54,713 nucleotides of DNA from a virus (lineage: Duplodnaviria; Heunggongvirae; Uroviricota; Caudoviricetes), in IMG/VR virus record IMGVR_UViG_3300037264_002389, positions 74,545-129,257 of that record. One strand, 5' to 3'. The position numbers and the translations under genes are program-made. The notes beneath the pieces are model-generated. The model was not told the origin of the DNA, made no database searches, and saw nothing but the letters and a program-made list of their open reading frames with translations. Within the stretch, counting starts at the first letter, position 1. Every line of letters starts with the position of its first letter. Shown here in pieces: positions 12,935-13,231 of the stretch.

Positions 12935-13231
12935 ATGAAAATGTACGTTCTGGTTAGACGAGACCTATCGCCTAGTCAACGAGCCGTACAAGCATGTCAT
13001 GCAGTGGCCGAGTTGCTTCTGCATCATAGGGACGATCCATAGGTTAAAAATTGGGCCGCTAACTGTAAAATCATGGTATTACTTGGAGTTGATTGCGAAA
13101 ATGATTTACTAAACTGGAAATCCAATTTAAATGGTAAAAGTGAATTATTTTATGAACCTGATATTAGTGCTCATACGGCTTTAGCTACGGTTTCAGATGG
13201 TGTTGAATTAAAATCATTGCGATTGCTATGA
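12935..13231 (+). CDS. Pth2-like peptidyl-tRNA hydrolase with in-frame TAG at codon 36 (readthrough gene or nonsense pseudogene)
   Basis: MKMYVLVRRDLSPSQRAVQACHAVAELLLHHRDDP*VKNWAANCKIMVLLGV...FYEPDISAHTALATV...LRLL. RBS AAGGAG; terminal TGA overlaps the next ATG. Confidence 0.8.

Follow-up and report, generated by a model that had tools for sequence, protein, structure and literature searches.

The locus and its genes

The DNA analysed here (the window) comprises the final 54.7 kb (54,713 nucleotides, positions 74,545 to 129,257) of the 129-kb viral contig IMGVR_UViG_3300037264_002389 from IMG/VR. Given that the CheckV completeness of this contig is ~35%, the source virus, a phage from sediment, is a jumbo phage. 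The window harbours a Pth2-like gene (similar to peptidyl-tRNA hydrolase genes), the open reading frame (ORF) of which is interrupted by a single in-frame TAG, and 36 tRNA genes, including one for an amber suppressor with the anticodon CUA (Table 1). As argued below, the TAG is likely a kept, programmed read-through site, and the suppressor tRNA and the Pth2-like gene together form a conserved two-part module.

The Pth2-like ORF consists of 35 sense codons, the TAG at 13040-13042 and another 62 sense codons, which run without further lesion to a TGA at 13229-13231. The ribosome-binding site and the Pth2-type N-terminal motif, by which the gene had been recognised in an earlier, sequence-only reading of the window, were both borne out: AAGGAG lies 6 nt before ATG 12935, and the Pfam domain PTH2 (PF01981) matches residues 1-66 of the read-through ORF with a score of 30.7 bits (E 4e-7, cut-off 23). 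The 62 uninterrupted codons past the TAG and the DDP-TAG-VKNW context described in that reading agree with the sequence as well. In the genome search, the PTH2 match scored 29.3 bits and contained one TAG inside its aligned part. The read-through protein also matches the phage families phrog_1866 and phrog_3668 ('hydrolase'), and its full-length homologues are ~100 aa long and share the same ...LRLL C-terminus. A blastn search with this region against cultured phages gave no match. The TGA does overlap an ATG, as had been reported, but the proposal that the next gene starts there did not stand. The match of the ORF from ATG 13228 to a PHROG virion protein begins only at residue 14, which corresponds to ATG 13267, and the latter is preceded by an AAGGAG of its own; hence ATG 13228 is probably not the start of the downstream gene.

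Conservation of the in-frame TAG

A DNA contig of the probable source sample (X1) shows no differences from the window over positions 10419-14000, and neither does an RNA-library contig of a different study (X2) over positions 12335-14000. A second X2 contig, of low depth, represents a strain diverged by ~10%, which has 20 differences and keeps the TAG. The 17 differences listed for this strain all lie within 13012-13138, none of them at 13040-13042, and affect 15 codons on both sides of the TAG. Nine of these codons carry synonymous changes and six conservative replacements, which is the pattern of a translated gene.

The closest homologues in IMG/VR, L002/L017 and L003/L018, are encoded on contigs of 234 and 247 kb and are 58% identical according to tblastn, a value that reaches 62% in the alignment used for the tree. 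The homologue alignment that had been proposed as a check on the first reading revealed TAG at the codon equivalent to 36 in both of them, within the shared context GAT CCA TAG GT. Among the genes of the window, L002 and L003, synonymous divergence (dS) is saturated, so that its ratio to nonsynonymous divergence (dN) is not computable, and dN amounts to 0.2-0.5 in both halves of the gene. The family invariants located 3' of the TAG (W40, E74, P75, D76, T81 and L97) are retained in all three. A TAG that is retained across saturated synonymous divergence is not a neutral codon, and the comparison as a whole indicates that the TAG is conserved and that the frame downstream of it is under purifying selection.

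Predicted fold of the read-through product

The AlphaFold2 (AF2) model of the read-through protein, based on an alignment of 55 family members, reached a predicted local distance difference test score (pLDDT) of 97, and its secondary-structure elements follow in the order strand, helix, helix, strand, helix, strand, strand. A Foldseek search against the PDB led to the Pth2 structures 2zv3, 3erj, 1wn2, 1xty and 1q7s with template modelling scores (TMq) of 0.75-0.84, and only Pth2-type folds were found below E 1e-3. The same search within the Swiss-Prot set of AFDB returned PTRHD1, PTRH2 and archaeal Pth with scores (TM) of up to 0.85, and the profile of the Pth2-like family (A3) matches 2zv3 with an E of 1.4e-6. 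The read-through product is predicted to be a complete Pth2-fold protein. Were translation to end at the TAG, nothing of the model beyond strand 1 and helix 1 would be made.

Like the archaeal and eukaryotic Pth2 proteins (MJ0051, 2zv3; AF2095, 3erj; PH1539; S. solfataricus Pth2, 1xty; human Bit1/PTRH2, 1q7s; PTRHD1), the phage protein displays an alpha/beta fold (TM ~0.75-0.85), the motifs R-x-D-L and Q-x-x-H-A, the Trp of helix 2, an acidic residue ahead of the last strands and the T-A motif. It is, however, ~15 residues shorter than these proteins, with which it shares only 15-25% identity. The residues reported to be catalytic in the S. solfataricus enzyme are the G-K Lys and the R-D-A-G Asp. 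When the family profile is aligned to 2zv3, the invariant T81 occupies the position of the conserved Thr, whereas the invariant E74 is found at that of the 'RDAG' Asp, the 'GKGK' loop is shortened by two residues and the G-K Lys aligns to S-Q-(Q/R). Judging from the fold, the protein may be a translation-rescue enzyme, as had been suggested from its sequence motifs, and would be predicted to hydrolyse peptidyl- or N-blocked aminoacyl-tRNA.

Linkage to suppressor tRNAs and matched stop codons across the family

A profile scan of IMG/VR revealed 160 relatives, and the best 80 loci, which were kept, contain 64 distinct genes besides that of the window. In 59 of these 64 distinct relatives a suppressor tRNA gene lies within 5 kb of the Pth2-like gene (on the same strand in 58 of the 59, and as the nearest tRNA gene in 51), and in 33 distinct relatives the suppressor starts 0-50 nt past the stop codon of the gene. 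In contrast, suppressors represent only 62 of the 325 tRNAs encoded in the related loci.

Exactly one in-frame stop within the domain was found in 14 of the 65 distinct genes (that of the window included), at ~10 alignment positions, and each of these stops has its counterpart among the tRNAs: 12 TAG codons are accompanied by a nearby tRNA-CUA, and two TGA codons by a tRNA-UCA located 515 nt upstream. None of the 14 stops is a TAA, and none is accompanied by a frameshift. The two TGA codons, in L073 and L084 (~5001-5270), replace the invariant Trp of the family; both loci encode a 96-nt tRNA-UCA and, 11 nt downstream of the gene, also a tRNA-CUA, and may belong to TGA-recoded phages. When the stop sites are counted by position and lineage, 8 of the 11 distinct ones fall 0-5 residues ahead of the invariant Trp, in a variable loop, accepting any residue, where helix 2 begins. 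In four further genes, a candidate TAG lies within a short leader and is not followed by a start codon. Since the gated genes are scattered among ungated ones in the tree and parsimony requires 11 changes, dependence of the Pth2-like gene on a suppressor must have arisen many times. The core of the sequence-only reading, namely that synthesis of the enzyme needs the phage's own suppressor, thereby gains support from two sides: the TAG is conserved in diverged phages, and matched stops recur in the family. The noise in stop-to-stop ORF coverage under alternative codes, as computed for the 10-kb loci, prevented the classification of every relative by this measure.

Sense codons at the gated position in relatives with a suppressor had been regarded as a possible objection. 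They are indeed found in most of the distant relatives, but the closest homologues keep TAG, and the distribution points to a gate that is optional in the family rather than accidental in the phage studied here. The homologue P0006 is uninformative in this respect, as its contig starts 85 nt before the gene, and no tRNA was found in the 5 kb after it.

Ochre-type tRNAs also occur next to some family members. In L078 a tRNA-UUA gene follows the Pth2-like gene after 8 nt. In the distant relatives L007/L008, a tmRNA gene at 797-1148 lies ~5 kb upstream of the Pth2-like gene, the matched part of which is followed after ~340 nt by a tRNA-UUA gene at 6595-6670.

The amber suppressor of the window

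The tRNA-CUA of the window has a short variable arm and A73. Its acceptor stem and A73 are identical to those of tRNA-Leu(UAG) at 23763-23839, which is one of four short Leu tRNAs encoded by this phage, and a T-loop of the sequence GGUGCrA, position 55 of which is G, and a D-loop that lacks GG are common to the suppressor and all four of them. The suppressor is a paralogue of the short-arm Leu tRNAs of the phage. The anticodon is not read by bacterial leucyl-tRNA synthetase, and because the suppressor belongs to the Leu family, the amino acid inserted at codon 36 is likely Leu. This makes plausible the earlier placement of Leu at the X of DDP-X-VKNW, and so does the occurrence of A, C, T, I or F at that position in sense-codon relatives. 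In L002 and L003, the suppressors belong to different tRNA types, which fits a site that tolerates any residue. Nearest-neighbour isotyping of the suppressors against 430 other phage tRNAs gave no answer that was consistent across phages, and an isotype family (Leu) is assignable for the tRNA-CUA of the window only.

Neighbourhood of the Pth2-like gene

Between the suppressor and the Pth2-like gene, a tRNA-shaped RNA is encoded, which could possibly be a third member of the module. ARAGORN detected few irregular tRNAs beside the gene in the related loci and did not confirm this RNA as a regular component. The suppressor gene is adjoined by a divergently oriented gene for a radical SAM and SPASM protein (10642-11580, + strand), and the product of the gene just upstream of the Pth2-like gene (12385-12924) shows a weak methyltransferase-like match. 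Neither of these two genes, nor any other neighbour of the Pth2-like gene in the window, is conserved in the related loci. A candidate promoter could drive 11696-12052, the tRNA-like RNA, 12385-12924 and the Pth2-like gene; promoter-like sites in general are not enriched over shuffled sequences.

Table 1. Position of the Pth2-like gene, its in-frame stop codon and associated features in the window.
Feature	Position	Strand	Remarks
Pth2-like gene	12935..13231	+	98 codons and TGA; full length needs TAG codon 36 to be decoded
In-frame TAG (proposed amber gate)	13040..13042	+	Codon 36, at the start of helix 2; invariant Trp40 follows four residues later
Shine-Dalgarno sequence AAGGAG	12923..12928	+	6 nt ahead of ATG 12935; found by direct sequence inspection
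Amber suppressor tRNA, anticodon CUA	10477..10550	-	Rfam RF00005, 47.3 bits (cut-off 29); 2.4 kb upstream of the Pth2-like gene
Short tRNA-Leu genes	23763-23839, 32402-32478, 32491-32567, 35633-35709		77 nt, without long variable arm; anticodons UAG, CAA, UAA, CAG
Candidate sigma-70-like promoter	11577..11605	+	11 of 12 matches, TG extension; consensus match only
tRNA-shaped RNA	12207..12283	+	Rfam tRNA, 55.1 bits; no normal 7-nt anticodon loop; ARAGORN 'gaaa' (4 bases)

Genetic code of the phage

The phage uses the standard code, and no sign of genome-wide TAG recoding was seen. In the contig, TAG terminates 29 of the 166 crude genes (~17%), the ORF length gained by reading TAG as sense is smaller than that gained for TGA or TAA, and the numbers of ORF pairs bridged by each stop are 14 for TAG, 24 for TAA and 20 for TGA. 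An RF-1 domain was not detected in the contig, which represents ~35% of the genome.

Further candidates for TAG-interrupted genes in the contig, among them protease, epimerase/deaminase and AAA ATPase, either proved to be neighbouring but distinct genes or had no match spanning the TAG. The joining of a small ORF to the protease gene was rejected, since the latter has its own GGAG-ATG. GDP-mannose 4,6-dehydratase and adenosine deaminase are encoded in the same frame at 3466-5427 (- strand) with a TAG and six codons between them; as judged by Pfam, they represent two distinct domains and genes and no read-through fusion.

The situation is similar in G002, the 246,684-bp contig of L003, which is 91% complete. 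Its sole tRNA gene is an amber suppressor (301-374), located 0.5 kb from the TAG-interrupted Pth2-like gene. TAG terminates 62 of the 302 ORFs of at least 100 aa (20%) in G002, there is no enrichment of TAG-bridged ORFs, and five other candidates were tested, not one of which spans its TAG.

Family members in cultured phages

Both forms of the module are present in cultured phages. In Mycobacterium phage ScoobyDoobyDoo, gp79 ('peptidyl tRNA hydrolase') is followed 180 nt later by tRNA(cta), which corresponds to the ungated form; Leu tRNAs of 74-75 nt are also encoded beside this gene. Yersinia phage fHe-Yen9-03 (L114, LT960552.1) carries the gated one: at 1974-2312 there is an ORF that begins with M-S-H-TAG (the stop being codon 4) and continues with the full domain, and a tRNA-CUA gene lies 3 kb downstream. 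The GenBank record of this phage shows no gene between g410 and g411, where the TAG-gated ORF is situated, and this gap in the annotation is caused by the in-frame stop. Mycobacterium phage Myrna carries the ungated form of the Pth2-like gene too, with a tRNA-CUA immediately downstream. Members of the family are also present in the Lak phages, which are recoded. In Vibrio phage D479, Xoo-sp13, XacN1, RAS14 and Ahp1 a family member is present with no tRNA gene within 2-2.5 kb; the CUA tRNAs of XacN1 are located in the terminal repeats (PMC5852040).

Proposed mechanism

In the mechanism proposed here, ribosomes halting at the TAG would release no more than the first 35 residues, a stub of strand 1 and helix 1 that is of no use, while decoding of the TAG by the phage tRNA-CUA, probably charged with Leu, would give the 98-residue enzyme of Pth2 fold, so that enzyme output would track the activity of the suppressor tRNA. 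We infer that the tRNA-CUA is expressed and charged. Seen across the family, the module would belong to large, tRNA-rich phages. Most lineages would couple its parts by co-transcription, with the tRNA 0-50 nt past the stop codon of the gene, and about a fifth to a quarter, that of the window included, by a matched in-frame stop. This points to a need for the enzyme wherever a suppressor occurs. As to the role of the enzyme, the clearing or recycling of peptidyl-tRNA or blocked aminoacyl-tRNA trapped by stop-codon read-through is tentatively favoured, because it agrees both with the Pth2 fold and with the proposal that PTH2 of jumbo phages acts in ribosome rescue (PMC7824862), although the chances that it is the right one are put at somewhat less than even.

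Several points weigh against the interpretation of the TAG as a programmed site within a module. The evidence for both the gate and the module consists of sequence comparison and predicted structure, and the RNA-library contigs confirm the sequence but not transcription, transcript ends or strand. TAG is the terminator of many phage genes, and a strong suppressor should therefore be costly. The screens by which no further TAG-interrupted genes were found in the contig were crude and covered ~35% of the genome. The suppressor gene of the window does not encode CCA, and its position 2.4 kb away on the opposite strand represents a looser linkage than in most relatives. The gate itself is optional, 47 of the 65 family genes being without an internal stop. 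Finally, since the 'GK' Lys of Pth2 is not conserved and Glu replaces the Asp, the chemistry and substrate of the phage protein may differ from those of Pth2.

Alternative explanations

The simplest alternatives deny the TAG any function. A sequencing or assembly error at 13040 might be suspected in a metagenomic assembly of modest depth (~13x), but the contigs of two studies agree exactly and the diverged strain has TAG as well, which excludes this alternative of the sequence-only reading for all practical purposes. A pseudogene or a recent nonsense mutation, with the suppressor nearby by coincidence, would be in keeping with the lone in-frame stop and with the small size and accessory nature of the gene, and another damaged gene had been pointed out at 27022. 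However, the TAG is kept across saturated synonymous divergence and in the strain diverged by ~10%, the downstream invariants persist with dN of 0.2-0.5, and each of the stops that recur in the family has its cognate tRNA nearby and is free of accompanying frameshifts, so that decay, too, can be dismissed with hardly any reservation. Equally improbable is that the TAG acts as a true terminator and that the gene works as two pieces or re-initiates at ATG 13073. Although this ATG sits 10 codons past the TAG, it is not preceded by a Shine-Dalgarno sequence, the Met it encodes is not conserved in the family, a protein started there would lose helix 2 together with the invariant Trp40, and the stops of other lineages lie at other positions with no start nearby.

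Two further explanations accept that the TAG is decoded. If TAG were reassigned throughout the genome or in late genes, as in code 15, the Pth2-like gene would simply be recoded along with many others. Suppressor tRNAs in combination with late-gene recoding have precedents among phages (10.1101/2021.08.26.457843; PMC9523058), recoded Lak phages carry members of this family, and L073 and L084 may be TGA-recoded. Yet the frequent use of TAG as a terminator, the small gain in ORF length and the lack of enrichment of TAG-bridged ORFs, of which those tested are separate genes with their own ribosome-binding sites, make reassignment very unlikely in this phage, and the same applies to G002. Less readily set aside, though still unlikely, is a negative-feedback homeostat, in which the enzyme deacylates the suppressor tRNA or hydrolyses its peptidyl form, so that read-through yields enzyme and the enzyme in turn reduces read-through. 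In its favour, the suppressor has no conserved partner besides the enzyme and vice versa, G002 encodes no tRNA but the suppressor and no recognisable TAG target but the enzyme gene, and with ~17-20% of genes still ending in TAG a limit on suppression would be useful. On the other hand, the 61 distinct suppressor tRNAs share no acceptor or discriminator feature by which the enzyme could single them out, and most family members are ungated, which makes translational feedback impossible in them. The exclusive partnership of suppressor and enzyme is explained equally well by the clean-up role and by negative feedback.

Comparison with known systems

Recoded phages, such as crAss-like, Lak and other gut phages, in which TAG is reassigned to Gln ('code 15') or TGA to Trp, have been described by Borges et al. 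(10.1101/2021.08.26.457843) and Peters et al. (PMC9523058); in-frame stops are found in 26-71% of their genes, mostly late and lysis genes. As in these phages, a phage-encoded suppressor would decode an in-frame stop under a standard-code host, and expression would need the phage tRNA. Recoded phages largely give up TAG as a terminator, whereas the phage of the window ends ~17% of its crude genes with TAG and has a single small target gene. The recoding preprint (10.1101/2021.08.26.457843) does not mention a hydrolase or peptidyl-tRNA.

It was proposed that PTH2 of jumbo phages hydrolyses peptidyl-tRNA in ribosome rescue (Iyer, Anantharaman, Krishnan, Burroughs, Aravind 2021, PMC7824862). That PTH2 belongs to the same protein family, and to the same kind of phage, as the protein of the window, but the word 'suppressor' does not occur in that paper, nor are in-frame stops mentioned. 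XacN1 (PMC5852040) and Atu_ph07 (PMC6102473) are likewise standard-code jumbo phages with a suppressor tRNA and a peptidyl-tRNA hydrolase gene, which are listed separately and unlinked in their descriptions, and the authors of the XacN1 study stated that the genes targeted by its suppressor tRNAs could not be identified (PMC5852040). A full-text literature search revealed no report of a connection between Pth2 and suppressor tRNAs, nor of a stop codon within the frame of this gene. Thus, jumbo-phage PTH2 and stop recoding in phages are known, while the linkage of the Pth2-like gene to suppressors and its gating by a stop codon are apparently undescribed.

A parallel can also be drawn to bacterial release factor 2 (RF2). 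Its gene, prfB, contains an in-frame UGA which is passed by a +1 frameshift, and in this way senses its own product. Both prfB and the Pth2-like gene would be translation-factor genes in which an in-frame stop reports the state of termination or read-through, and this state sets the output; in the phage gene, however, the stop would be read through by a suppressor tRNA. Whether suppressor and enzyme constitute a closed, portable circuit that holds read-through at a set level while TAG still serves as a terminator, as a tRNA-based analogue of RF2 control that evolved many times by convergence, seems rather doubtful.

Implications

Suppressor tRNAs of many standard-code jumbo phages have been 'orphans', and the conserved partner gene described here would be the first concrete target for them, which answers part of the question of what they are for. 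The module would represent a compact natural case of tRNA-gated gene expression, and it connects stop-codon read-through with peptidyl-tRNA metabolism in a way that can be tested. In addition, it must be borne in mind that standard gene callers miss or split gated genes, the unannotated ORF of fHe-Yen9-03 being one example. Since both forms of the module occur in cultured phages, direct tests of its function are possible.
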